From: Gemmatimonadota bacterium
Lineage (GTDB): Bacteria; Gemmatimonadota; Gemmatimonadetes; Palauibacterales; Palauibacteraceae
Length of the DNA stretch: 64,000 bases
Assembly: GCA_965116475.1 (NCBI GenBank)
Contig: OZ220691.1
Span: 2,336,001 to 2,400,000, forward strand
Reading direction: 5' to 3'
Shown here: positions 8,245 through 24,770 of the stretch, in pieces
How positions within the stretch are numbered: the stretch's first letter is position 1
Layout: every line of letters starts with the position of its first letter
The notes under the pieces: generated by a model
What the model was told of the DNA's origin: nothing
Database searches by the model: none
The model's input: only the letters and a program-made list of their open reading frames with translations
Made by a program: the position numbers and the translations under genes

Positions 8245-10137
8245 TCAGAAGCCGAGCGACGCCGTCTCCCGTCTCACGTCCCCCGCCGCCGTCAGCACCC
8301 CCGTTTGCGGGTCGCGCCAGGTCACCGTGGGTGCTCCCGCACGCCAGTTCCACAGGCCCCACGAGCGCACGTCGTGGCCCATGGCGCTGAGCGCCTCGGC
8401 CGTCTCCGCCGGGATCCGGTCCTCCATGTAGAGGACGGCGGGATTGCGGTTCACCTCGCTCCCGGTGGCCGGGAAGTTGTAGCTGCCGAACCGGGGCTGG
8501 TCCAGGGCCTGCTCGGGGGACATCCCCCACACGACCACGTTCAGAAAGATCTGAAGGAGGCACTGCATCTGCTGGTCCCCGCCGGGGGTGGAGAGCCCCA
8601 TGAACGGCTGGCCATCTTTCATGACCAGGAGTGGCGAATTGGTGTTGCGGGGGCGCTTGCCGGGCGCCATCACGTTGGCCAGGTCAGGGTCCAGGTTGAA
8701 CTGACCCATGCGGTTGCCCAGCCCGAATCCCCAGCCCGGGATCATGGGCGTGAAGGTGTGGCCGTCGCTCTCGGTGAGGGAAAACAGGTTGCCCTCCCCG
8801 TCCATCACGTTCAGGGAGGACGTGTCGTCGGACAGAGATCCATCGCCGGCGGGCCCACCTCCCGACGCCACGAAGCTCATGGGCGCGCCGTCCGCCACCG
8901 CCGCCATCCGCTCCGGATCTCCCCACGGAGGCATGTCCTGAGACGCGCGCGTCTCGTCGATGAGCCCGATGCGCTCGCGCGCGTACGCCTTCCCGTACAA
9001 TCCCTTCGGCGCGGGGGCGAAGTCCGGATCACCCACGTACCTGTGGGCGTCCGCCATCGCCAGATTGATCACCTGCGAGATGAGGTGGATGTACTCGGGC
9101 GTGTTGTAGCCGAGAGCGCGCAGATCGTAGTTCTCCAGCATGTTGAGCATCAGGATGAGACGCGGTCCCTGGCTCCACCCGTCGCCGGTGAAGACGTCGT
9201 AGCCGTGGAAGCCGGTTCCCAGAGGCTCCTCCCAGCGACTCTCGTATCCCGCCATGTCCTCGTAACGGACGATGCCGTCCTGATCGCGGAAGAAACGGTC
9301 CACGTCGCGCGCCGGCTCGCCCCGGTAGAAGGCGTCGCGAGCGGCGCGGATCCCTTCGGAACGGCTCCCTCCCGCCGTCAGTGCCTGCCTCTCGGCCTCC
9401 ATCATGTAGCGGATGAGGCGCCCCAAGTCGGCGTTCACCATGAGATCGCCCAGGCGCTGCTCACCGACCCCGCGGGGGAACCAGAAGTCGCGATTGTAGG
9501 GGAAGGCGAGGATCCCCTCCGTCTGATCCTCGATCATCCAGGCCTGCATCTTGTAGAGGTGATAGCCCTCCTCGGCGATGCGGAGCGTCGGCTGGGCGGC
9601 CTCGCTGAAGCTGAGGGTGCCGAAACGGTCGAGAGCGGCGAGCCACACATCCACGTCCGCCGGAATCAGCGCGTTGTTGATGGGCGACTTGCCGTGCTCG
9701 AGGAAGTAGTCGAGGGTGGCCAGCGCGGGTGAGGTGCCCGCGCCGACTCGGGTGATCACGCGGTCCTCGGCGGCGCTGTAGAGGATCAGCGGCGCCACTC
9801 CGGCCCATCCCGCGTAGTCCATCTTGAGCGCCTTGAGCGCCATCCCCGCGGTCACCCCGGCGTCGAAGGCGTTGCCGCCGGCCCTGAGCACGTCGTACCC
9901 GGCCTGCGTGGCCAGGTAGTGCCCGGAGGAGATCACCCCGCGCGTGCCCATGATGCGCGGCCGCATGGCCTCGACGTTGTCGGCGTTGTGGACGGGACCG
10001 TGACTCCGGAACGGGGCGATAGTGGCGAAGACGCCGTCCTCCGCGGAGGCGGATGCCTCCGGCGCGTCCATCCGCGAGTCGCACGACGCGACGAGCGCCA
10101 GAGCCGCCACGGCGACTGCGCATGACAGGGACTTCAT
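8245..10137 (-). CDS. Gamma-glutamyltransferase family lipoprotein
   Basis: Lipobox LVASC; GGNAFDAGV, N-terminal-nucleophile Thr in DDTSSLNVMD, PGKRPRNTNSP, STPGGDQQMQ, DQPRF. Confidence 0.9.
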   Translation of the reverse strand: MKSLSCAVAVAALALVASCDSRMDAPEASASAEDGVFATIAPFRSHGPVHNADNVEAMRPRIMGTRGVISSGHYLATQAGYDVLRAGGNAFDAGVTAGMALKALKMDYAGWAGVAPLILYSAAEDRVITRVGAGTSPALATLDYFLEHGKSPINNALIPADVDVWLAALDRFGTLSFSEAAQPTLRIAEEGYHLYKMQAWMIEDQTEGILAFPYNRDFWFPRGVGEQRLGDLMVNADLGRLIRYMMEAERQALTAGGSRSEGIRAARDAFYRGEPARDVDRFFRDQDGIVRYEDMAGYESRWEEPLGTGFHGYDVFTGDGWSQGPRLILMLNMLENYDLRALGYNTPEYIHLISQVINLAMADAHRYVGDPDFAPAPKGLYGKAYARERIGLIDETRASQDMPPWGDPERMAAVADGAPMSFVASGGGPAGDGSLSDDTSSLNVMDGEGNLFSLTESDGHTFTPMIPGWGFGLGNRMGQFNLDPDLANVMAPGKRPRNTNSPLLVMKDGQPFMGLSTPGGDQQMQCLLQIFLNVVVWGMSPEQALDQPRFGSYNFPATGSEVNRNPAVLYMEDRIPAETAEALSAMGHDVRSWGLWNWRAGAPTVTWRDPQTGVLTAAGDVRRETASLGF

Positions 10138-10213
10138 CGCGCCATCCTCCCGTTTCCGGTTCGAGGCGGAGACCCGACCGACGATTCCCCTGAACGCAGA
10201 TTCTGACAAGGGA

Positions 10214-10701: not shown

Positions 10702-10721
10702 GACGTTCCCGCGGGAACGTC
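10702..10721. repeat. Perfect 20-bp palindrome GACGTTCCCGCGGGAACGTC, copy 1
   Basis: Identical copy at 59710-59729; overlaps the qhpE stop codon. Confidence 0.85.
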
Positions 10722-11475
10722 AGGCCGCGGCCAGCGCCTCCAGCGCGGCGAGTGCGGCGGCGCGGCCGCGCGCGTCCGGGAAGGGTTCGAGCGCGAGGGC
10801 GACCATGCCGGTCGCGTTCGCCACGGCGAAGCTGATCCCGTTGAGGTTCCGCTCGGGCGGGACGCTCGGGATCGGGCGCGGATAGCCGGAGGCGTAGAGC
10901 ACCCGGCGGCCGTCGCGCCGACCGATGCGGACGGCGTCCCGCGGGAGGTCCCAGTCGAGGCACACGCCGAGTGCGTCGGGGAGGCTGCCCGGGAGCCAGC
11001 GCTCCCCTTCGTGCGAATGGGCCGCGATGACGAGCGTTCCGGCGCGCGCGGCGCGTTCGACCGCGGGCTGCAGCACCTCGATGCGGCGCTGGCGGGGCGT
11101 TCCGAGGCTCAGATTGGCCAGCCGGCAGCCGCGCTCCGCGGCCCGGTCGATCGCCTTTGCCAGCGTCCGGGCGCTCGTCGCCAACTCGCCGTGAAAGACG
11201 CGGGCGACGTGAACCTGCGCGCCCGGCGCCTTCTCCTGGATGGCCGCGGTGACGGCGGTCCCGTGGCCCAGCCGGTCGGTCAGGTCGTCGTGCTCGCAGC
11301 CGTCCGGGGAGAACGCGACGCCGCCCGCCAGGAGCCCCAGGTGCGGATGGTTCGGGTGCGCCCCGCTGTCGATGACCGCGATGGAGATCCCCCGGCCGGT
11401 CCGGCGCCGGAGCGGCTCCGCGCCCATCCGCACGACCGCCGGTCCCGGGGGCGCTCCCGCCGCCGGCGCGGTCAC
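10720..11475 (-). CDS. qhpE: Subtilisin-like (S8) serine protease, QhpC leader-processing enzyme
   Basis: Catalytic triad VIDSG / GHGTAV / NGISFA; no signal peptide; last gene of the qhp run with GTGA overlap. Confidence 0.82.
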   Translation of the reverse strand: MTAPAAGAPPGPAVVRMGAEPLRRRTGRGISIAVIDSGAHPNHPHLGLLAGGVAFSPDGCEHDDLTDRLGHGTAVTAAIQEKAPGAQVHVARVFHGELATSARTLAKAIDRAAERGCRLANLSLGTPRQRRIEVLQPAVERAARAGTLVIAAHSHEGERWLPGSLPDALGVCLDWDLPRDAVRIGRRDGRRVLYASGYPRPIPSVPPERNLNGISFAVANATGMVALALEPFPDARGRAAALAALEALAAA

Positions 11476-13190
11476 CCGGCGAACAGGGCGCGGAACGCAC
11501 CCGGCCGAGCGTCGAGTTCCGCCGGACGGCCATCCTGCGCGACCCGCCCGTCGCGGAGCACGACCACGCGCTCGGCCCGGCGCGCGAGTTCGGGGCGGTG
11601 CGTGATCAGCACGGTGGTCCGTCCCCGCATCAGCGCCGCGTAGCCCTCCAGCACCTGCGCCTCCGAGGCCGGGTCCAGAGCCCCCGTCGCCTCGTCGAAC
11701 ACGAGCACGGCCGGATCGGCGAGGAAGGCGCGCGCCACCGCCACGCGCTGCCGCTCCCCGGCGGAGAGCTGCCGGCCCCGCTCGCCGACCACCGTCCCCG
11801 CCCCCTCCGGAAGCGACGCGAGCAGCCCGTCGAGCGCCGCCGCCGCGAGCGCCCCGGTCACCTCCAGGTCCGTCGCGTCCGGCCTGGCGTAGCGCACGTT
11901 CTCGGCGATCGAGGCGTGGAAGATGAACGGGTCCTGCTCCACCACGGCCACGTTCCGCCGCACGTCGGCCAGCGCGAGCCCGCGCAGGTCCCTCCCGTCG
12001 AGCAGGACCCGCCCGCCCTCCGGGTCGAGTTGGCGCGAGAGCAGGTCCGCGATCGTCGACTTCCCGCTCCCGCTCGCGCCGACGAGCGCCACCACCTGCC
12101 CGGCGGGCACCTCAAGCGATACGCCCTCCAGCACCTCCCCTCCGCGCCCGAAGCCCAGCCTGACGTCCTCCAGCACCAACGCCCCCGCAGCCCGCTCCAG
12201 CCGCTTCGCCCCATCCGTCTCCACCACCTCCAGCGGTGTGTCGAACAGTTCGTGGACGCGCACGAGCGACGCCCGCGCGCTCGCCAGGTTCGCGTACAGC
12301 CCCATCAGCGCCTGCACGGGAAAGAGGAGCCGCATCTGGTACGCCATGAAGGCGACGAACGTCCCCAGCGTCGTCGCCTCCGTGATGACCCGGTAGCCCC
12401 CGTACAGGAAGACGGCGGCGGTCCCCGTCTGCAGGAGGACCCCCGGCAGGCCTCCCGCCAGGTACGTGTAGCGGCGCATCGACAGCAGCGCCCGCACGAA
12501 CCGGTCGTTGTGGCGCCCGAACCGCGCCGCCTCCCGCTCCTGGGCGTTGGACGCCACGACCGTCCGCACCCCCTGCAGCGTCTCGATGAGAAAGCTCCCG
12601 ATGTCCGCGCTCCGCTCCCGCAGGTGCCTCACCCGCCCCTCGAGCCGGCGACGGTATCGCACCAGCGCCCAGAGGCTCGGCGGCAGCGCAACGAGCCCCG
12701 CCAGGAAGAGCCGCGCGTCGAGATAGATGAGCATCCCCACCGTCCCGATCAGGAAAAGCACGTTCCCGAACAGCCCGAGCGCCGCGTCCGCCGTCACCCG
12801 CTGGATCTCGCCGATGTCGCTGTTGATGCGCGACACGATGTCCCCGAACGGCGTCCGCGCGTAGAACCTCGGCGAGAGCCGCTGCAGGTGGCGGTAGAGC
12901 GCCAGCCGCATGTCGAACAGGATGCCCGCCGACACCCGCGTGTACCGCATCCCGCTGGCGACGTTGGCCCCGAAACCGAGGAGAGTGATTCCGATGAAGA
13001 GGCCGACGATCCTGAGCAGAAGAGGGAAGTCCCCGCCCAGGATCGCGTCGTCGATCATCGCCTTCGACAGGTAGGGAAGGGCGAGCCCGAGCGCGGTCCC
13101 GGCCGTGGAAAGGAGGACCACGGGCAGCAAAGCCCCCGCGTACGGTCGAACGTAGGCGAGGGCTCGGCGAAGGTGCGGGTCCCGGATCAC
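11472..13190 (-). CDS. qhpF: ABC exporter (fused TMD and NBD), putative QhpC translocator
   Basis: GTG 13190 after GAGGT; six TM helices; Walker A GASGSGKST; signature LSAGERQR; VFDEAT; located in the qhp cluster. Confidence 0.82.
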   Translation of the reverse strand: MIRDPHLRRALAYVRPYAGALLPVVLLSTAGTALGLALPYLSKAMIDDAILGGDFPLLLRIVGLFIGITLLGFGANVASGMRYTRVSAGILFDMRLALYRHLQRLSPRFYARTPFGDIVSRINSDIGEIQRVTADAALGLFGNVLFLIGTVGMLIYLDARLFLAGLVALPPSLWALVRYRRRLEGRVRHLRERSADIGSFLIETLQGVRTVVASNAQEREAARFGRHNDRFVRALLSMRRYTYLAGGLPGVLLQTGTAAVFLYGGYRVITEATTLGTFVAFMAYQMRLLFPVQALMGLYANLASARASLVRVHELFDTPLEVVETDGAKRLERAAGALVLEDVRLGFGRGGEVLEGVSLEVPAGQVVALVGASGSGKSTIADLLSRQLDPEGGRVLLDGRDLRGLALADVRRNVAVVEQDPFIFHASIAENVRYARPDATDLEVTGALAAAALDGLLASLPEGAGTVVGERGRQLSAGERQRVAVARAFLADPAVLVFDEATGALDPASEAQVLEGYAALMRGRTTVLITHRPELARRAERVVVLRDGRVAQDGRPAELDARPGAFRALFAG

Positions 13191-13207
13191 CCGGACCTCA
13201 CGGGCTG

Positions 13208-14344
13208 CTAGGGATCGGGCACCACGACGACGCTCGTCATGTCCGCGTCCAGCGTGACCGTCCGCAGGAATTCGAACGTCTCCTCGTCGTAGATGTCGAT
13301 CGTGCTGCCGGCATTGTAGATGTAGAGCTTCGTGCCGTCGGCGCTCGGCATCAGCGCCATCCGCGGCCGCCCCTCGAAGGTGACGCGCCCGGCGACCCGC
13401 CGGCCCTCGAGGTCGAACTTCCACATTTCATAGTGCCCGATCTCGGACTTGAGCCCGTATCCCTTCGTCCCGTCCGGCGAGAGCACGAACGAGACGCCTT
13501 CGCTGGGACCGATGGGGTGGAACTCCACGTCTTGCGCCGCCAGGTCCACGGTCGCGATGCCCATGAGGCGGCGGTTCTGGAGCGGATCCGTCATGCGGAA
13601 GAGACCCGTGTAGACGCCGTCCTCCTCCTGGTAGGGACTCTGGCCGAAGGGAAGCCTCATCTCGCCCAGCCCCGGCTCCAGCGGTTCCGAGATATCCCAG
13701 CGGTCCACCTCCTCGAACGTCTCGGAGTCGAGCGCGATGAGATCGTCCGTGAACATGTACAGAAGATCGCCGTCGGGAGAGAAGCGGAAGTTGGCGGAGC
13801 GGCGCGACTCGTCGTCCGGCCACGGGATGGTGTCGGTCACCTCGTAGGTCGTGAGATCGAAGCGCAGGATGGTCGGCTCGTCGATCCGGTACCGGTCGGC
13901 GAGCTTCGTGCGGCTCTGCACGAACATCGCCATCCAGTCCTGGCTCGGGTGGATCTGGAAGGAGCGGATCCACGTCCGGGTCGAACCCTCGCTCAGCGTG
14001 AACTCCCCGATCGACTCCTTGGAGGGGAGGGCGATGATCTCGATCGTCTCGAAGAAGGGGTCCATCACGTAGAGCCGCGACCGGTCCTCGGAGACGTCGA
14101 GGCGGAGGGAGATCGGACGCTTGACCGGGATCCGGTCCACGATTTCCTCCGTGGCCTCATCCCAGACGAGGACTTCATTGCTGTAGTTGCCCATGTACCA
14201 GTGGGCGTTGCGGCCGTTCCCCGGCGCGCCGCCGTTCTCCTGCGCCTCCAGCCCCGGCGCCGAGTCCGCGCCGAGTCCGCAGGCGATGGCGGCGGCTGCG
14301 GCGAGACCGGCCGCGCGTGTCCGGACCCCTCCCGGGCGGATCAC
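13208..14344 (-). CDS. qhpB: Quinohemoprotein amine dehydrogenase beta subunit (beta-propeller)
   Basis: GTGA overlap with qhpC stop; signal peptide; propeller repeats (SPDGDLLY, SPDGTKGY, SADGTKLYIY); directly downstream of qhpC. Confidence 0.8.
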   Translation of the reverse strand: MIRPGGVRTRAAGLAAAAAIACGLGADSAPGLEAQENGGAPGNGRNAHWYMGNYSNEVLVWDEATEEIVDRIPVKRPISLRLDVSEDRSRLYVMDPFFETIEIIALPSKESIGEFTLSEGSTRTWIRSFQIHPSQDWMAMFVQSRTKLADRYRIDEPTILRFDLTTYEVTDTIPWPDDESRRSANFRFSPDGDLLYMFTDDLIALDSETFEEVDRWDISEPLEPGLGEMRLPFGQSPYQEEDGVYTGLFRMTDPLQNRRLMGIATVDLAAQDVEFHPIGPSEGVSFVLSPDGTKGYGLKSEIGHYEMWKFDLEGRRVAGRVTFEGRPRMALMPSADGTKLYIYNAGSTIDIYDEETFEFLRTVTLDADMTSVVVVPDP

Positions 14345-14697
14345 GGGAAGACGAGGTCCAGCTTCCGCCAGTCCTTCTGCGCCGACGCGCACTGCGACGT
14401 CCAGTCCGGCGAGTGGTTGAGCTGGTCGGGCACGTGCGCCGGCCAGAAGCAGGCGAGGTGGCAGTCGAACAGGTCCCGTTCCACGGGCTGGCACAGCCCG
14501 GCGGTGCCGCCGGTCGAATCCACCTCCCAGCCGGGCGAGAACACGAGCGAGCAGCCCAGCGGAATGTGGGGCCCCTCCGGCCGGCTCTCGAGCCCCACGA
14601 CGTCCATCTCCTCGTCCTTCGCCCGGTCCATCGCCTCGCGGGCCACCTGGGCCTCGATGCGGCCGGCCTTCTGGTTGATCGGTTTCAGGTGCTTCAC
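14341..14697 (-). CDS. qhpC: Quinohemoprotein amine dehydrogenase gamma subunit precursor (CTQ-bearing, thioether cross-linked)
   Basis: Leader MKHLKPINQKA; GC...PGWEVD...LCQPVERDL..C...C.WPA..PD...DWRKL..VFP matches the QhpC pattern. Confidence 0.96.
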   Translation of the reverse strand: MKHLKPINQKAGRIEAQVAREAMDRAKDEEMDVVGLESRPEGPHIPLGCSLVFSPGWEVDSTGGTAGLCQPVERDLFDCHLACFWPAHVPDQLNHSPDWTSQCASAQKDWRKLDLVFP

Positions 14698-14709: not shown

Positions 14710-16149
14710 TCAGTGCCCGAAGCGCGACAGGTACTCCGGGTTCCGCTCGGACAACTCTCCGTAGATCTCCAGACACGTGTGCGTCCACGTCCGGACCCAG
14801 GTGCAGAAGTGCAGGTTGGGCGCGGTCGTCTCGCCTGTCCGCGTGTGCGCCTCGTGGTAGCAGCCGCCCGAGCAGATCGGACGGGCCCAGCAGGTATGGC
14901 AGTCCGTCTTCTTGCTGATGTGGTGATCCTCGAGGAAGTCCTTCTGCCGCTCGCGGTCGATCCCCTCGGCGACCGTCCCGAAGCTGTGGTCGTTCGAGTA
15001 GGCGAAGCGGTGGCAGAGCGACACGTCGCCCCCCGTCGTCACGCCCATCAGCCCGAGCCCGGCCCCGCACGGATATGCCTTGCTCACGCCCTTGTGGATC
15101 TCCTCCAGCGTATCCTTCACGTTCGAGAAGCCGTGGTGCCGGTTCTCCACCGCGTGGTCCAGCCAGTCGCGCGCCAACTCTCCGAACTGGCGCAGCATGC
15201 GGTCGTATCCCTCGTCCTCGATCTCGTAGTCGCGCCCGGAGGAGGTCGTGACCGGGGCGAAGCCCACCTCCCAGAACCCCATTTCCTCCGTCAGGTGACG
15301 GTAGATGCGGTGGATGTCGAGGTTCTCGCGCGTGAGCGTGACGCGCGCGCCGATCGGCCGGGACTTGTGCCGCTTGAGCAGTTCCTTGATCCGGGGTTTG
15401 ACCGTCTCGTAGGAGCCCTTGCCGCTGTGGAAGACCCGCATGCGGTCCTGCATCTCCTTCGGGCCGTCGATGGAGACGGTCACGCCGATCTCGTTGTCCG
15501 CCAGCCACTCGATGATGTCGGGGCGGAGGAGCGTCGCGTTCGTCGTGAGGCTGAACTCGATCCGCTTCCCGTCCTCCTGGGCGCGGCGGCGGGCGTAGGC
15601 CACCGTGTCCTGGAGCACGGGGAAGTTGAGCAGCGTCTCCCCTCCGAAGAAGGTGAGGTGCGCGACCTCGATGGGGCCGGACTCCTTGAGGAGGAACTCC
15701 ACGCTTTCCCGCGCGGTCTCGTCCCCCATGAACTTCGGGTCGTCCGTGCACGTGGTGTCGACGATCTTGTCTTCGCCGTACTCGTAGCAGTACGTGCAGG
15801 CGAGATTGCACTTGTTCGTGACGTTGAGGACCATCGTCGTGAGCGGGAAGCCGTCGGGCGGCAGGTCGTTCACGACCTGTTCGGCGGGAGCCCCCGCCTC
15901 CCCGATGGCGCGAATCTGCTGAAGTTCGAGCAACCCATCGTGTACGCGGTCGACGGGATACCGGTCGGAGAGCGAGTTCACGACCTCGCCCGGCGCGCGG
16001 GGGCCGTAGCTCAGCAGGTCGAGGATCGCGGAGGACGCCGCATCGATCCGGAAGATGCCGGCCGAGGGCACGAGGTAGAGAAACCGCTCGCCTGCCGCCT
16101 CGAAGGCGTGGAATTCGCGCAGCGCCAGTTGGCCGATCGGTTTGATCAC
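14710..16149 (-). CDS. qhpD: Radical SAM/SPASM thioether-forming maturase
   Basis: N-terminal EFHAFEAAGERFLYLVPS; CNLACTYC; FFGGETLLN; SPASM YPCGAG...CHRF...CHTCWARPICSGGC; GTGA overlap with qhpA. Confidence 0.94.
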   Translation of the reverse strand: MIKPIGQLALREFHAFEAAGERFLYLVPSAGIFRIDAASSAILDLLSYGPRAPGEVVNSLSDRYPVDRVHDGLLELQQIRAIGEAGAPAEQVVNDLPPDGFPLTTMVLNVTNKCNLACTYCYEYGEDKIVDTTCTDDPKFMGDETARESVEFLLKESGPIEVAHLTFFGGETLLNFPVLQDTVAYARRRAQEDGKRIEFSLTTNATLLRPDIIEWLADNEIGVTVSIDGPKEMQDRMRVFHSGKGSYETVKPRIKELLKRHKSRPIGARVTLTRENLDIHRIYRHLTEEMGFWEVGFAPVTTSSGRDYEIEDEGYDRMLRQFGELARDWLDHAVENRHHGFSNVKDTLEEIHKGVSKAYPCGAGLGLMGVTTGGDVSLCHRFAYSNDHSFGTVAEGIDRERQKDFLEDHHISKKTDCHTCWARPICSGGCYHEAHTRTGETTAPNLHFCTWVRTWTHTCLEIYGELSERNPEYLSRFGH

Positions 16150-17876
16150 GGCACCAGCCTCCCTGCCGGAACGCCCTGCCACGGGTCGAACTTGAGATAC
16201 AGCGGTACCGTGACGATGAGGTGGGCGCGGGCGCGGAGGCTCTCGCCGCCGGCCGGATCCGCGCCCGAATCCGCGTAGGTCGCGACGACCCACACGTCGC
16301 CGATGTTGTTCCGGTTGCCCTTGCGGCCGGGGTTCGGACCGTCGATTGCCGGAGTGAAGATGCCGTCCGACCCCAGCGCGCCGACGTACTGGATGTCGTC
16401 GTCATCGAAGGTGGCCGTGTACTCCTCCATGCTCCAGCTCACGGGCACGCGCCCGAGTCGCAGGTCGTCCTCCGTGTTCGGCTCGCCGTCGGGGCCGTCG
16501 TCCCACCCGATGGCGTCGTAGGGCTGATGGCCTTTCGGGAAGGCGGCTCCGCCGATCCGGGCCATCCCGGCGCGCGGCGTCACTTCGAGGCGGTCCACGC
16601 CGTCATGGACCTGAATCGCGTCCGCCAGGCTCACGCCGCCCAGGAAGAGGTCGCGCCCGCCGACGGCCGCATCGTCATCGACGGAGAGGCGAAGCGTGAC
16701 CTGGCTCCCGTCGCCACCCGTCGCGGACTCGACCCGGACGCCGGGCCCGAAGTCGAAGTCGGTCGCGTCGGGACTCGCCGGGAGATCGACGCCGTGAACC
16801 CGGAGTTCGGTCGACGACGCGCCGGAGCGGATCGCCGGGGGATGCACGCCCGATACGACGGGGCCGCCGCTCGCGCGGGTCAGCGTCACGTCGGGGCCGA
16901 ACTCATCGTACGCGCCCGTGAACCAGCGGCCCGTCATCCGCTGCCATCCGCGGTCCACCGTCATGACCTCCCGCAACTCGTCCGCGCCGCCGGGATTCGA
17001 CCGTCCCCGCCACTGATAGCCGGTATAGACGATGGCCTGTCCGCTCCGACTCACCTCCCGCCCCGACTCCGCGTACGTGTACGAGGCGCGGGAGCGGAAC
17101 TCGTCGGGCGCGTCGCCGGCGGAGATCTCCACCGTGCCGAAGATCCGGCCCTTCCCGGGCTCGAACCCCGCCAGCGCCCAGGTGCCCGCGAGCCGCGGCG
17201 TGCGCATCGAGGCCGACCAGGCGGACCATTCCGGCGTCTCGAGGGGGAAGGCCTCGGAGAGGTGCTCGATCGCCTCGTCCACCGGCTGAGGTCCGTCGCC
17301 TCCGCCCTGGAACCCCTGGAAATCGACGAGCGGGTACAGGCCGCGGTGCGTCGCCATGAGGAGTTCCCACTCCTCGCGCGTGCGCCGCTGTGTGATGACG
17401 CGGCCCATGCTGTGGCACTGAATACAGGTGTTTTCGACGTCGCGGTCCGCCTCGTAGACGTGCTCGATGAGGCGGCGTTCGACCTCGAAGCGCCCGGGTT
17501 CGAGTTCCTCCGGCGCGAGGCCCTGCCGGTTGGAGAGATAGCGCACGACCTCGCGCGCCTCGTCGGGGCCGAGGGAGACGTCGTTGAGCGCCACCATGCG
17601 GCGGACCGACGTCTGCCACCCCTCCGGCGTCTTCCGCTCGTAGGAGATCCGCGTCATCCGTCCTTCTTCATCGCGCTCGTGGCAGCGCTGACAGCGGCGG
17701 ATGATGATCTCGTGGTCGATCGGATAGCCCTCGTCGTCGGCTGCCGCGTGGACGGGAGCGGCGCTCGCGGGCATGCCCGGGACCGAAGGCATCGCGCGGG
17801 CGGCGATGAGGGCCGCGGCGACGACGACCAGGCCGGCCGCCGCCAACGCGTTCTTTCGGGACGCTGCGTGATTCAT
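16146..17876 (-). CDS. qhpA: Quinohemoprotein amine dehydrogenase alpha subunit (di-heme c)
   Basis: GGAGG RBS; signal peptide; CQRCH and CIQCH; RISYERKTPEGW; YTGYQWRG; GPDGEPNTEDD; GPNPGRK..NNIGD; LIVTVP. Confidence 0.95.
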   Translation of the reverse strand: MNHAASRKNALAAAGLVVVAAALIAARAMPSVPGMPASAAPVHAAADDEGYPIDHEIIIRRCQRCHERDEEGRMTRISYERKTPEGWQTSVRRMVALNDVSLGPDEAREVVRYLSNRQGLAPEELEPGRFEVERRLIEHVYEADRDVENTCIQCHSMGRVITQRRTREEWELLMATHRGLYPLVDFQGFQGGGDGPQPVDEAIEHLSEAFPLETPEWSAWSASMRTPRLAGTWALAGFEPGKGRIFGTVEISAGDAPDEFRSRASYTYAESGREVSRSGQAIVYTGYQWRGRSNPGGADELREVMTVDRGWQRMTGRWFTGAYDEFGPDVTLTRASGGPVVSGVHPPAIRSGASSTELRVHGVDLPASPDATDFDFGPGVRVESATGGDGSQVTLRLSVDDDAAVGGRDLFLGGVSLADAIQVHDGVDRLEVTPRAGMARIGGAAFPKGHQPYDAIGWDDGPDGEPNTEDDLRLGRVPVSWSMEEYTATFDDDDIQYVGALGSDGIFTPAIDGPNPGRKGNRNNIGDVWVVATYADSGADPAGGESLRARAHLIVTVPLYLKFDPWQGVPAGRLVP

Positions 17877-18133: not shown

Positions 18134-18598
18134 ATGACCGAAGGCCAGTATCAGCATCTCCTGAGCATCATCCAGGATAACAATACCAAGCTCGACGGCA
18201 TCGCGGGGAAACTCCGGGAGCACGATGGGCAGCTCGACGGCATCGCAGGGAAACTCCGGGAGCACGATGGGCAGCTCGACGGCATCGCGGGAAAACTCCA
18301 GGAGCACGATGGGCAATTTCACCGCATCGAGGAGAAACTCCAGAAGCACGATGGGCATTTCCACCGCATCGAGGAGGAACTCCAGAAGCACGATGGGTAT
18401 TTCGACCTCATGGCGGGCAAACTTCAGGAGCACGACGGGCGATTCAACGGGCTGGACGAGGTTCTTGATCTCGTTCTTCAGAAGGTCGGCGACGTCGACA
18501 CGAGACTGGGCGGCTTTATTGATCTGATGAAGGCGAGCCCGCTGTGGCGGATGGTGGAGGCTGTGGAGGAAGGTCCAGGAAGCCGGCTCCGACGGTGA
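18134..18598 (+). CDS. Coiled-coil protein built from 14-aa repeats
   Basis: GAGG immediately upstream and purine-rich leader; six repeats of the type LDGIAGKLREHDGQ / FHRIEEKLQKHDGH. Confidence 0.7.
   Translation: MTEGQYQHLLSIIQDNNTKLDGIAGKLREHDGQLDGIAGKLREHDGQLDGIAGKLQEHDGQFHRIEEKLQKHDGHFHRIEEELQKHDGYFDLMAGKLQEHDGRFNGLDEVLDLVLQKVGDVDTRLGGFIDLMKASPLWRMVEAVEEGPGSRLRR
18191..18442 (+). repeat. Six tandem 42-bp intragenic repeats
   Basis: Units start at 18191, 18233, 18275, 18317, 18359, 18401; units 1-3 near-identical, units 4-5 near-identical. Confidence 0.92.
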
Positions 18599-20108
18599 GG
18601 GCGAGGGCGGCGAGGAAGTCGGGGAGCGGCGCCGGGTCGGCGCGCCGGTTGTAGGCCTCGTAGATGTCGGGGACCTGGTCGAGCGCCGGCGCCACTTCCA
18701 CGAGCTGCCGGAGATCGACGTTGCGCACGTAGCGCGCGCCGCCCGGCAGCCGCTCCGAGACGAGGTGGGGTTCGAGGGCGATCCGGTTCCCGGCCACGGC
18801 GGGGGCGGAGACGATTTCGAGTCCAGCGGCCGGGCGGAGGTGCACGGAGGGGAGCGCGCGGATGGTCTCGTACGCCGCCCGCACCTCCGTGCTTCCGAGG
18901 AACGCCTCGGCTTTGTCTTCCGCGAGCGAGCGCTCGCCCGGCTCCGGCATCCCGGACGCTCCGGCCGCCGCCGCGGGTTCCCGGAGGCCACCCCCCGCCG
19001 CGCGCGCGGCGTCGAGCCGGGCGTCCCAGAAGGGATGGTCGTTCGCGGCGGCGGCCTGCTCCAGGAAGGGAACGGACAGCGCCCGGTACGTGCGGTACAC
19101 CTCGCGTTCCCGGTCGTCGTACAGCTCGCAGGCCGGGCCGGCCATCGCGTCGTCCTCCAGCGCCGTATGCGTCACGATCGCGGCGAGCCAGGCGGAGGCG
19201 AGCGCCTTCTTGACGCCGTACGAGGAGAGGGGGTCGATGAAGGAGCCGGCGTCGCCGACGAGGAGCAGGCCCGGCCGGCCATGCGAGGTTGCGCCGTAGA
19301 GCGACGCGGGACATGCCCGCACGGGCCCGTCCAGCCGGCCTCCTTCGAGGCGCCGGCCGAGCCGCGCCGCCTTGGCCAGCTCGGCGCGCCACATGCCGTC
19401 GAGGCCCCGCTTGCGCGCCAGATCCGTGCGGCGCGGGTCGACCATCGCCGTGACGCAGCGGGTACGCGGCGAGGTCGGCACCGACCAGGCCCACCCGTCC
19501 CGGTAGCTCTCGATCAGCGTACAGCCGGGGTCCGGTGGGGCGTGGCCGCGGTCCGCGGTCCAACGGCCGACGAGCGCGAGCGTGGCGATGCCGCGTTCGC
19601 GCGTCCGGAGCCCGCGCCGGGCGAGCACCCCGGCCCGCCCGGAGGCGTCGAGTACCCAGCGGCCCCGGTAGCGCGCGGCTGAGGTGGCCACGCGCCAGCC
19701 CTCGGGCTCAACGGCCGTCTCGACCACCGGCCCGTCCGTCACCAGCCGCGCGCCCGCCTCGCGGGCCACTCCATGAAAGGCGGTCTCCAGCGCCGCCCGC
19801 TCCGCATGGAAACCACGTTCAGGCTCCCCGAACCGTTCTTCGCGGCGGGGCATCCCGGCCCACCACACGGTGTTGCCCTCGTTCGGCACGAAGCCCGCCG
19901 CGTCCAGTACGTCCAGCGCGCCCACGCGTTCGAGGAGTTTCCGCGCCGAGCCGGGGATCGACTCGGCGAGCCACTTCGCCGGCGGCGCGGGCCGCGTGAT
20001 CAGCGCGACATCGTGCCCGCGCCGCGCCAGCGACGCCGCGGCGGCGCAGCCGGCCGGCCCGCCGCCGACGATCAGGGCATCGTAGACGTGTCGGTCGGGC
20101 CCGCTCAG
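18516..20108 (-). CDS. qhpG: FAD-dependent monooxygenase/halogenase-fold protein, candidate QhpC Trp hydroxylase
   Basis: DALIVGGGPAG, LDASGR, GWAWSVP, VGDAGSFIDPLSSYGV; adjacent to qhpA; start uncertain (CTG 20108 overlapping upstream TGA). Confidence 0.68.
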   Translation of the reverse strand: MSGPDRHVYDALIVGGGPAGCAAAASLARRGHDVALITRPAPPAKWLAESIPGSARKLLERVGALDVLDAAGFVPNEGNTVWWAGMPRREERFGEPERGFHAERAALETAFHGVAREAGARLVTDGPVVETAVEPEGWRVATSAARYRGRWVLDASGRAGVLARRGLRTRERGIATLALVGRWTADRGHAPPDPGCTLIESYRDGWAWSVPTSPRTRCVTAMVDPRRTDLARKRGLDGMWRAELAKAARLGRRLEGGRLDGPVRACPASLYGATSHGRPGLLLVGDAGSFIDPLSSYGVKKALASAWLAAIVTHTALEDDAMAGPACELYDDREREVYRTYRALSVPFLEQAAAANDHPFWDARLDAARAAGGGLREPAAAAGASGMPEPGERSLAEDKAEAFLGSTEVRAAYETIRALPSVHLRPAAGLEIVSAPAVAGNRIALEPHLVSERLPGGARYVRNVDLRQLVEVAPALDQVPDIYEAYNRRADPAPLPDFLAALALTVGAGFLDLPPQPPPSATAGSPSSDQ

Positions 20109-20821
20109 TTCGGCCGCTGGCGCAGCGCGAGCGCGCCCCCGCCGCCCGGCCCGTCCATGGCGAAGCAGTAGAAGCGGCCGTCGCCGCCCGTCCCGCGCAG
20201 ATCCTCGAGGCTGCAGCCCCGCGACCCGTGCGCCTCGTTCCACGACGTCGGGTTCTGTCCGCCGCCCGTGCGGTCGTGGTGTCCGACGAGCGCACTGCCC
20301 TCGCCGCTCGACATCCAGTTGCTGCACGTCGTGTCGCCGTCCGCGCCCGAGGCCATGCCGTTCATCAGGGTCCCGGTGAGGATGTCGTGCTGGTTCGGCT
20401 GGTCGCCCCGGCCGTTCACCTCATCGCCGTTCTCCGTGAGGATCGTGGCCTTGGTCAGGTTCGGGCCGTTGCTGTGCAGGTGTTCGACATCCCGGGCGAT
20501 CATCGTGCCCGCGTGGTTGAACCACGGCCCGTCGCCGATCCGGTCGCGCGCGTTCACGCCGCCCGTACCGGTGGTGCTGAGGTAGGCCCGCCACATGCGG
20601 TCGGGCAGTCCGGCCGCCTCGGCCAGCGTCCCGCAATACGCGTCCGCGCCCTCGAGACCGCCGAGGTCCGCGCCGTCCCCCGGATTCGAACTCGTGATGA
20701 AGAAGCTGATGTTCTCGTCCTGCGCCGCCACGGCGTTCGCGCCGAACGCGAGCAGGATGGCCGCGAGGCCCGCCGCGAGCCCCGCCGCGAGACCCATTGA
20801 CCTTTTCGTTCTCCAATTCAT
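20105..20821 (-). CDS. Secreted lectin-like (endostatin/collagen NC1-like, DUF1554-like) protein
   Basis: AGGAG RBS; signal peptide; FFITS, DLGGLEGADAYC, WRAYLS, RIGDGPW, HDILTG, TCSNW, FYCFA. Confidence 0.78.
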   Translation of the reverse strand: MNWRTKRSMGLAAGLAAGLAAILLAFGANAVAAQDENISFFITSSNPGDGADLGGLEGADAYCGTLAEAAGLPDRMWRAYLSTTGTGGVNARDRIGDGPWFNHAGTMIARDVEHLHSNGPNLTKATILTENGDEVNGRGDQPNQHDILTGTLMNGMASGADGDTTCSNWMSSGEGSALVGHHDRTGGGQNPTSWNEAHGSRGCSLEDLRGTGGDGRFYCFAMDGPGGGGALALRQRPN

Positions 20822-20877: not shown

Positions 20878-21903
20878 TTACCGCCGAATGTACTTTCTCA
20901 TCTGTCGGGGGCCGACCTCGGCTCCGTAGAGGTTGCCGTGCGCGTCGACCGCGATCCCCTCGGCGCCGCTCGTGCCGGATGCGTCCTGGTTGGGCTCCGG
21001 ATCCGGGATGAAGGTCGTCACCCAGCCGGTCGCCGCGTCGCCGATGTAGATGCCGCGGAGCCACCCCTTGTTGCGGCGCGCGTTCGACTCGGAGTCCGTC
21101 GAGTAGAGGACGTCTTCCTCGTCGATGAACAGCCCGCTCGGCCGCCCGAACTGGTGCCAGGTCTCGAGGTGGTTCCCCTCCTGGTCGAAGACCTGGACAC
21201 GGCTGTTGCCGCGGTCGCCGACGAAGAGGCGTCCCTGCGAGTCCATGGCAAGCGCGTGCGGGTCGCGGAACTCTCCGTTCGCCGTGCCCGCGCGTCCCCA
21301 CTCCATGAGGAAGGTGCCATCGGGCGCGAACTTCACGATGCGGTTGTTGCCGCCCGCGTCGTGCCCGTCCGCGACGAAGATGCTGCCGTCGGGCGCGATG
21401 AGGATGTCCGACGGCTTGTTGAAGTGGTTCGGACCGTCTCCCGCGACGCCCTTCTCGCCCAGAACCATCAGGACCTCGCCCTCGGGGCTGAACTTGTAGA
21501 TCACGTGTCCCCAGCCCTCCGGTACCGGCGCGTATCCCACGGCATCGGCCACCCACACGCTGCCGTCCTCCTCGACGAACATTCCGTGCGGCCACGCGAT
21601 CAGTCCCGAACCGAAGCTCCGCACGACGTTCCCCTCGGTGTCGAAGAGCAGGATCGGGTCGACGTCGCTCTCGACGCACAGGTTCGCGCCGCACCGCTCA
21701 CCCACCCAGATGTGTTCGCCGTCCGGGGCCGGATAGACGGCGCTCGTCGCGCCCCAGTTGCGTCCATCGGGAAGCTGTCCCCAGCCGTCCACGGCCCTGT
21801 AGGGGTTCGGCGCCGTCAACTGCGCCGCGAGCGCATCGGCGCCCACAACGACTGCCGCGAGCGCGAGTGCCGCGCCGAGTCCGATTCGCCTTGTGCTGTG
21901 CAT
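20878..21903 (-). CDS. Secreted NHL-repeat protein (PAL-like six-bladed propeller)
   Basis: GGAGG RBS; signal peptide; WPHGMFV, FNKPSDILIAPDGSIFVADG, NNRIVKF, FRDPHALAMD, DRGNSRVQVF. Confidence 0.85.
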   Translation of the reverse strand: MHSTRRIGLGAALALAAVVVGADALAAQLTAPNPYRAVDGWGQLPDGRNWGATSAVYPAPDGEHIWVGERCGANLCVESDVDPILLFDTEGNVVRSFGSGLIAWPHGMFVEEDGSVWVADAVGYAPVPEGWGHVIYKFSPEGEVLMVLGEKGVAGDGPNHFNKPSDILIAPDGSIFVADGHDAGGNNRIVKFAPDGTFLMEWGRAGTANGEFRDPHALAMDSQGRLFVGDRGNSRVQVFDQEGNHLETWHQFGRPSGLFIDEEDVLYSTDSESNARRNKGWLRGIYIGDAATGWVTTFIPDPEPNQDASGTSGAEGIAVDAHGNLYGAEVGPRQMRKYIRR

Positions 21904-22022
21904 CCGTCCTCCTGTCCGTCCGGTCCGCGCCGTCCCCATCGCTGCCGAACCGAAAACGATGGGACGTCACCGGCAAAGCGGGCAAGTTGGGCAGGCGGCG
22001 CAACGGGGCCCGCCCGAAGGGG

Positions 22023-23462: not shown

Positions 23463-23573
23463 CCCATCAGGATGGCGCGGCCGGCGCGCGCCGTCGACCC
23501 CGGCCGATCTCTGGACGAACGCGGATGGCATCTGTAGCGTGAATCCTACACCTATCCGCAAGGAGAGACGGCC

Positions 23574-24770
23574 ATGAACGGAAAGCGGCGAACCCTCATC
23601 TTCGGTATGGTCGCGGGCATCGCCCTCGCGCTGGCGTGCGGCCAGGCGGCCATGGACGACGGGGCCCAGGCCAGCGAGGGGCAGGGCGTCGAGGCGCCGA
23701 TGTTCGAGGTGGACCCGTTCTGGCCCAAACCGCTGCCGGACCACTGGGTGCTCGGCTCGGCCATCGGCGTGGGCGTGGACTCGCGCGACCACGTCTTCAT
23801 CGTGCACCGCGGCAACCTCACGGAACGCACCGAGGGCGGGGCCGATGCGGACCCGCCGATCGGCGAGTGCTGCCGGGCCGCGCCACCCGTGCTCGAGTTC
23901 GATCCCGAAGGAAACCTCGTCAACGCCTGGGGAGGACCGTCGGAAGACTACGTGTGGCCCGGCTCGAACCACGGGATCACCGTCGACCACATGGACAACC
24001 TGTGGATCGGCGGAAACGGGCCGAACGACACGCACATCCTGAAGTTCTCGCGCGATGGCGAGTTCCTCGCTTCGTACGGCGAGCCGGAAGCGGGGCCGGA
24101 ACCGGACAGCCACAGCGAGACGCGCTTCAACCGCGTGGCGAAGCTGGCGTTCGACGCCTCGGCCAACGAGGCCTACCTCGCGGACGGCTACGGCGGGCGC
24201 CGGGTTGCGGTGCTGGACGCTTCGACCGGCGCCTTCAAGCGCTACTGGGGCGCCTACGGCAACGCGCCCGACGACACGCGCACGCCGCCCTACGACCCGG
24301 ACGCGCCGCTCATCCAGCAGTTCCGCACCCCCGTGCACTGCGCCGAGCCGTCGCTCGACGGCCTCGTCTACGTGTGCGACCGCCCGAACGACCGGATCCA
24401 GGTCTTCCAGACGGATGGGACGTACGTGGATGAGGTGCGGATCGCGCCGCGCACGCTGGGCGACGGGTCGACGTGGGACATCGCCTTCTCGCGCGACGCG
24501 GACCAGAAGTACATGTACGTCGCCGACGGCAAGAACATGCGCGTCTACATCATGGACCGCGCCTCGCTCGAGATCCTGACCAGCTTCGGCGATGGCGGCC
24601 GGCAGCCGGGCCAGTTCTTCGCCGTCCACAGCATCGCGACGGACTCGAACGGCAACATCTACACGACGGAAACCTACGAAGGGAAGCGGGTCCAGAAGTT
24701 CGTGTACATGGGCACGGGCCCCGTGCCGGCCGAGCACCAGGGCCCGCCCTGGCCGCGCGGCGACCAGTAG
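23574..24770 (+). CDS. NHL-repeat lipoprotein, paralog 1
   Basis: Lipobox LALAC; FEVDPFWPKPLP, CCRAAP, NHGITVD, ADGYG, PVHC, CDRPNDRIQVF, HSIATDS. Confidence 0.87.
   Translation: MNGKRRTLIFGMVAGIALALACGQAAMDDGAQASEGQGVEAPMFEVDPFWPKPLPDHWVLGSAIGVGVDSRDHVFIVHRGNLTERTEGGADADPPIGECCRAAPPVLEFDPEGNLVNAWGGPSEDYVWPGSNHGITVDHMDNLWIGGNGPNDTHILKFSRDGEFLASYGEPEAGPEPDSHSETRFNRVAKLAFDASANEAYLADGYGGRRVAVLDASTGAFKRYWGAYGNAPDDTRTPPYDPDAPLIQQFRTPVHCAEPSLDGLVYVCDRPNDRIQVFQTDGTYVDEVRIAPRTLGDGSTWDIAFSRDADQKYMYVADGKNMRVYIMDRASLEILTSFGDGGRQPGQFFAVHSIATDSNGNIYTTETYEGKRVQKFVYMGTGPVPAEHQGPPWPRGDQ

Follow-up and report, generated by a model that had tools for sequence, protein, structure and literature searches.

A conserved fifth cysteine in the gamma subunit of quinohemoprotein amine dehydrogenase: a possible donor of a fourth Cys-to-Asp thioether

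Quinohemoprotein amine dehydrogenase (QHNDH) provides the textbook example of cross-linking by a radical S-adenosylmethionine (SAM) enzyme in which the substrate is a protein and not a peptide, and to our knowledge, all that has been learnt about it comes from two proteobacterial four-cysteine enzymes. We have analysed a window of 64,000 nucleotides from a Gemmatimonadota bacterium (GenBank contig OZ220691.1, positions 2,336,001 to 2,400,000; coordinates hereafter are those of the window), in which the gene for the QHNDH gamma subunit precursor, qhpC, specifies a fifth cysteine, Cys103. This cysteine is a strongly selected feature of many QhpC lineages, beyond the clade of the window protein, in which the usual WW dipeptide reads FW. 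We infer, as the likeliest reading though with rather less than even confidence, that Cys103 is the donor of a fourth Cys-to-Asp thioether with Asp109 as the acceptor; both the bond and the acceptor are read from the sequence.

The minus strand gives the only meaningful reading of the open reading frame (ORF) 14341-14697, the plus-strand frame being meaningless. The features of qhpC are as follows:

14341..14697, minus strand: qhpC, QHNDH gamma subunit precursor, 118 amino acids from a GTG start; identified by PF08992, NF037958 and a gap-free structure alignment
14572..14697, minus strand: leader peptide, residues 1-42; boundary predicted by homology, QhpE cleavage site putative
14425..14553, minus strand: canonical modified residues, predicted by register with 1jju_C: thioether pairs C49-E58, C69-D75 and C83-D91, and the C79/W85 pair of cysteine tryptophylquinone (CTQ)
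14389..14391, minus strand: TGC codon of Cys103, the fifth cysteine
14371..14373, minus strand: GAC codon of Asp109, the candidate acceptor (C-X5-D)

By every testable criterion (profile score, alignment register, leader and operon), the predicted product is an ordinary QhpC. It matches Pfam PF08992 with an E value of 2.9e-34 (117.4 bits; cutoff 25) and the NCBIfam model NF037958 (QH_gamma) with 130.6 bits (cutoff 50), residues 1-118 being placed on model positions 1-104. The GTG start at 14697 lies 5 bases past a Shine-Dalgarno-like GAGGGGGAG run and 12 bases past the stop codon of qhpD. With phmmer, residues 47-118 align without any gap with residues 5-76 of the gamma subunits of Paracoccus denitrificans (1jju_C; PDB 1JJU, 1PBY; E = 5e-22) and Pseudomonas putida (1jmx_G; PDB 1JMX, 1JMZ; E = 2e-22). 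The offset of 42 residues given in a preliminary description of this stretch is exact in both structures (C49 = C7, E58 = E16, C69 = C27, D75 = D33, C79 = C37, C83 = C41, W85 = W43, D91 = D49), such that, over a stretch of 72 residues, the four cysteines, the three acids and the tryptophan of CTQ all match those of the Paracoccus subunit in position. The same register equates Cys103 with Ala61 and Asp109 with Asp67 in 1jju_C and 1jmx_G alike.

In the model gamma subunit, Cys-to-Glu/Asp thioethers join C7-E16, C27-D33 and C41-D49, and C37 and W43 form the CTQ pair (PMC8172795; also PMC7876137 and PMC11951088; these papers are cited here and below for the excerpts consulted). For Pseudomonas putida, three Cys-to-Asp/Glu thioethers and CTQ are documented (PMC7876137, PMC11951088). 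The extra cysteine six residues ahead of D109, announced in the preliminary description, is present as stated, and the alignment bears out the accompanying remarks on the cofactor surroundings: where the Paracoccus subunit has Ala61, WW and LYGCADPC, the window protein has Cys103, FW and LFDCHLAC, the motif of the two model enzymes being LYGC(A/S)DPC. The Pseudomonas putida subunit also has Ala at the fifth-Cys site, and its Trp42, which sits in a hydrophobic pocket of the QhpG docking model (PMC7876137), corresponds to Phe84 in the window.

The leader keeps the N-terminal consensus MKHLKxINQKAxRIE and a DVVGLE motif, with a linker between them that varies in length in the alignment. The N-terminal block, a predicted recognition element for QhpD, is common to members of the four-cysteine type too. 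At the junction of leader and core, the window protein reads SRPEGPHI against a single residue in P0164 (four-cysteine type), in line with the seven or so extra residues pointed out earlier. About seven further extra residues lie within the leader itself. The first cysteine is, thus, at position 49 versus position 35 in P0164, i.e., the stretch preceding it is some 14 residues longer in the window, while Cys35 of P0164 accords with a leader of 28 residues, the length given for the model enzymes (PMC7876137).

Cys103, Phe84 and Asp109 are each found in 121 out of 121 sequences, namely the window protein and its 120 closest homologs (64-93% identity; the best 120 of 2601 matches), which refutes non-conservation of Cys103 among close relatives. 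We could also trace the fifth cysteine much further. As every search was seeded with fifth-Cys sequences, the fractions that follow are biased upwards: of the 45 representatives at 50% identity that could be classified (150 were listed, 105 of them fragments or proteins with broken motifs), 37 have it, including WW-type proteins only 35-50% identical to the window protein; a profile made from nine WW-type fifth-Cys members retrieved 120 classifiable proteins, 77 with the fifth cysteine and 43 without; and amongst 272 distinct pooled cores, 208 have the C-X5-D arrangement, 14 have C-X6-D and 50 lack the fifth cysteine. The four-cysteine form is the minority class in these query-biased samples. 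One match, P0262 (1027 amino acids, 13 matched stretches), was rejected as spurious: it is the translation of a perfect tandem repeat without QhpC features.

Named carriers of the fifth cysteine include the Firmicute Sporosarcina soli (P0296), a Planococcaceae isolate (P0332) and a Terriglobales metagenome-assembled genome (MAG); it is absent from a Competibacteraceae MAG. The preliminary description had treated it as a peculiarity of one divergent subclass. This view does not hold, as these Sporosarcina, Planococcaceae and Terriglobales proteins belong to WW-type lineages, and the fifth cysteine is far more widespread than was assumed. The Sporosarcina soli and Planococcaceae sequences are fifth-Cys QhpC proteins recorded under the names of Gram-positive, cultured sources, though QHNDH is called a periplasmic enzyme.

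In a tree of 82 non-redundant cores (71 columns), the distribution of the trait requires at least four changes; the tree comes from a quick search that kept the trait's own column and left 50 of 79 inner branches unresolved, and it does not tell gain from loss. It does support a group with FW or YW (Shimodaira-Hasegawa-like approximate likelihood ratio test, SH-aLRT, 96) and a C-X6-D group (SH-aLRT 99). The latter constitutes a well-supported clade of the WW type (e.g., P0285, P0313, P0327, P0363). The motif exceeds chance because the cysteine is conserved in 121 out of 121 close relatives and in several other lineages, and not on account of its spacing.

Cores without the fifth cysteine nearly all read C(S/A/T)DPCWW, as do both model enzymes. 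At the site itself, the 50 Cys-less cores carry A, K, S, T, L, V or Y, a variety that argues against a tightly packed position. This bears on the alternative that Cys103 stays a free thiol with a structural or redox role, e.g., by packing where the C-terminal helix begins or by shielding the cofactor, and forms no bond, an explanation that we hold to be unlikely, albeit one to be reckoned with. It is favoured by the fact that Ala most often takes the place of the cysteine (in 35 out of 50 Cys-less cores), Cys/Ala exchange being frequent at small, semi-buried sites; moreover, no bond is evident, and D109 is conserved also where the cysteine is lacking. However, a residue that merely had to be small would hardly be expected to stay invariant across several phyla (222 distinct cores) at a site where K, L, V, T, S and Y are all accepted in the four-cysteine class; because of that tolerance, an invariant unpaired cysteine is hard to explain by simple packing. 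Moreover, since the exported subunit has yet to form one specific Cys-Trp bond, a thiol left unpaired on it would presumably risk wrong links.

The residues downstream of the fifth cysteine bear on the fourth thioether. An acid occurs six residues past it in 222 out of 222 distinct cores (Asp in 208, Glu in 14). In the C-X6-D cores, a one-residue insertion puts the cysteine seven residues before the aspartate of the DW dipeptide, and all 14 have Glu at Cys+6, while of the 50 Cys-less cores no more than 12 have Glu or Asp at that site; the fixation of this Glu counts against a free thiol. D109 is the sole acid near C103 kept in all fifth-Cys lineages and one of three invariant columns in the QhpC alignment. 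A residue of the helix N-cap type (S, N, D or T) is found at D109-4 in 47 of the 50 Cys-less cores versus 135 of the 208 C-X5-D cores, 70 of the latter having Ala there. Such a loss of the cap would fit a covalent staple in its place; this is weak evidence, confounded by phylogeny.

The enzyme that would make the additional bond is encoded directly upstream of qhpC:

14710..16293, minus strand: qhpD, radical SAM/SPASM thioether-forming maturase; TIGR03906 561.6 bits (cutoff 453) over residues 60-525; ORF as listed, the true start being probably further in

Scoring above the equivalog cutoff and carrying a Radical_SAM core match (PF04055), it is, by its predicted product, a true QhpD. We expect the canonical chemistry on the window QhpC: QhpD would make the thioethers C49-E58, C69-D75 and C83-D91, and CTQ would arise from C79 and W85. 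Cys103 would then be a fourth donor, its sulfur being joined to the beta-carbon of D109 at a spacing equal to that of C69-D75. The resulting bridge would fasten the C-terminal helix to the loop that precedes it, and the exported subunit would be left without a free thiol. QhpD is described to make links of three different spacings, to Asp and Glu alike, in one peptide (PMC8172795, PMC7876137), and its relative PapB makes six Cys-Asp links within one peptide (PMC8172795). By analogy, PapB shows that such enzymes readily process repeated Cys-acid motifs. The likeness of the window system to PapB/freyrasin-type ranthipeptide maturation is mechanistic only: the window QhpD attains 285 bits on the PapB model, below its cutoff of 340, the PapB product is a short secreted peptide and not an enzyme subunit, and spacing and leader differ.

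Several points weigh against the fourth thioether, beside the upward bias of the searches. The proposed C103-D109 bond is deduced from sequence. The C-X5-D spacing by itself is weak evidence: by hand count, an Asp or Glu follows at a distance of six residues for 9 of 75 core positions (12%) and at a distance of six to nine for 31 of 75 (41%). As the four-cysteine class has an invariant D109 too, the conservation of this residue is uninformative about any link. The structural context is equivocal as well. An AlphaFold2 model of the full precursor (54-row alignment; mean pLDDT, the predicted local distance difference test, 53.6, with the core below 50) has C103 between two short helices, and a model of the core alone (79-row alignment; mean pLDDT 51.7) has it inside a helix spanning residues 99-108; both are of low confidence and they disagree on the helix boundaries around residues 99-112. 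By our own geometric estimate, a link from a Cys sulfur to the beta-carbon of an Asp could not span the distance between positions i and i+6 of a regular helix. The second model, with C103 in a helix and D109 six residues further on, would suit a free thiol. The gamma chain is described as mostly coil with two short helices (PMC7876137).

A further point against the proposed bond comes from a lineage in which the fifth cysteine could be near the tryptophan rather than D109. Seven full-length cluster representatives (P0181 and P0392-P0397), one of whose clusters comprises 311 sequences, read FGTTDM(Y/F)CWW, i.e., Thr takes the place of the CTQ cysteine; all three canonical pairs of Cys and acid are kept, and the fifth cysteine stands in a C-(T/A)RAMK-D-W context. 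Having lost the CTQ cysteine, all seven retain the fifth one and, if the enzymes of this lineage still make CTQ, it is the only cysteine left over for it. Cys103 may, accordingly, stand beside the tryptophylquinone, either bonded to W85 through its sulfur (as a second link or in place of the usual one) or as a redox-active neighbour, and be the CTQ cysteine itself in the Thr lineage. We judge this rather improbable. The nearness of C103 (residue 61 of the solved subunits) to the tryptophan (Trp43) is assumed; the quinone of the Thr lineage may simply lack a cross-link, or its proteins may have four links between Cys and acid; and, being a single lineage, it represents one evolutionary event. 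In the Thr-type proteins, either the quinone is unlinked and there are four Cys-acid bridges, or the fifth cysteine gives the sulfur of CTQ, and the latter option implies that position 103 is near the tryptophan.

The preliminary description had also suggested an inter-subunit disulfide. The genes of the two partner subunits are:

16146..17876, minus strand: qhpA, di-haem alpha subunit; TIGR03908 472.6 bits (cutoff 274); from the Met ahead of the signal peptide
13208..14344, minus strand: qhpB, very divergent beta subunit; TIGR03907 E = 5.8e-17, 61.8 bits (cutoff 223.2)

QhpA has four alpha-subunit Pfam domains and two CXXCH motifs only. The QhpB match, despite its low score, is nearly end to end (model positions 7-323 of 338 in TIGR03907), and the GTG start of qhpB overlaps the stop codon of qhpC (GTGA). 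The odd number of cysteines on an exported protein would speak for a disulfide of C103 with the alpha or the beta subunit. However, the window QhpA has its four haem CXXCH cysteines and no others, QhpB has none after the signal peptide, and, in the clade's 68 QhpA and 79 QhpB sequences, Cys reaches 5% of a column only in the two CXXCH motifs and at two positions of the signal peptide (9 of 79 and 4 of 79). We have rejected the suggested bond because neither alpha nor beta has a conserved spare cysteine; its likelihood is negligible and the idea can be taken as effectively excluded. The lack of a partner cysteine in both subunits counts in favour of the fourth thioether. The signal peptide of QhpB ends in a lipobox-like AIAC, the Cys of which is present in only 9 of the 79 clade members. 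A complex prediction for the beta subunit and the gamma core returned a score of 0.00 and no contacts, which is evidence neither for nor against binding.

C103 might also pair outside the heterotrimer, be it with another copy of the gamma subunit, with an electron acceptor, or with a metal or small thiol. Some divergent members do bear further cysteines (P0192, P0260). Against this, no conserved pattern of His or Cys partners recurs across the fifth-Cys lineages, and the model enzymes are described, in the excerpts consulted, only as alpha-beta-gamma complexes (PMC7876137, PMC8172795); we consider such a partner quite improbable.

Taking the proposed thioether together with the alternative of a cofactor bond, the chances appear about even that most QhpC lineages outside the model proteobacterial group bear a modification lacking in the solved enzymes: either a fourth Cys-Asp/Glu thioether or, as the Thr lineage hints, a cysteine that can bond the tryptophylquinone from elsewhere in the chain. 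In the former case, the substrate scope of QhpD would be wider than described; a Cys-tryptophylquinone bond from another place in the chain would amount to an alternative or doubly linked cofactor. The fifth cysteine is not mentioned in the QHNDH literature searched, nor in the excerpts consulted of PMC7876137, PMC13692751, PMC11951088 and PMC8172795.

Profiles of Pfam and NCBIfam together with third-position GC delimit a complete operon on the minus strand, in the order qhpG-A-D-C-B-F-E. Its remaining members are:

18516..20327, minus strand: qhpG-like flavin monooxygenase; NF049967 (QhpG) 225.8 bits, just below the cutoff of 240; ORF as listed
11472..13424, minus strand: qhpF-like ABC exporter with ABC_membrane and ABC_tran domains; ORF as listed
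10720..11475, minus strand: qhpE-like subtilisin-type leader protease (Peptidase_S8); NF049966 (QhpE) 152.9 bits, below the cutoff of 165

The frames of the qhpG-like and qhpE-like genes are backed by third-position GC, which is high in the former. The same kinds of genes make up the operon of Paracoccus denitrificans. We compared 80 related loci (61-92% identity), the best 80 of more than 601 genomic matches and all closest to the window; they are MAGs mostly labelled Gemmatimonadota (Palauibacter, Longimicrobiales) and Acidobacteriota (Vicinamibacterales and others). All seven genes occur in the G-A-D-C-B-F-E order in 23 of the 80, most others having the same order cut at contig ends, and the qhpF-like exporter keeps its operon place in related loci. 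A different amine substrate, also raised in the preliminary description, is plausible: the divergent beta subunit and the changed CTQ surroundings are compatible with one, though they do not show it. A gamma-glutamyltranspeptidase gene (8245-10209, minus strand) directly follows the operon on the same strand; we rejected it as a clue to the substrate, given its presence in only 6 of the 80 related loci (mostly Palauibacter-labelled MAGs) and its location outside the conserved unit.

In the gap of about 640 bases between qhpG and qhpA, the opposite strand holds an ORF of 154 amino acids (18134-18598, plus strand) that encodes some eight tandem repeats of a GKLxEHDGxxxxI-type unit. Its GC content at the second codon position is unusually low, and no counterpart was found among the 80 related loci at an E value of 1e-8. 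On the upstream side of the operon, there are two genes for NHL-repeat beta-propellers, at 20878-21939 (minus strand) and 23538-24770 (plus strand), with relatives in 10 and 3 of the 80 loci, respectively.

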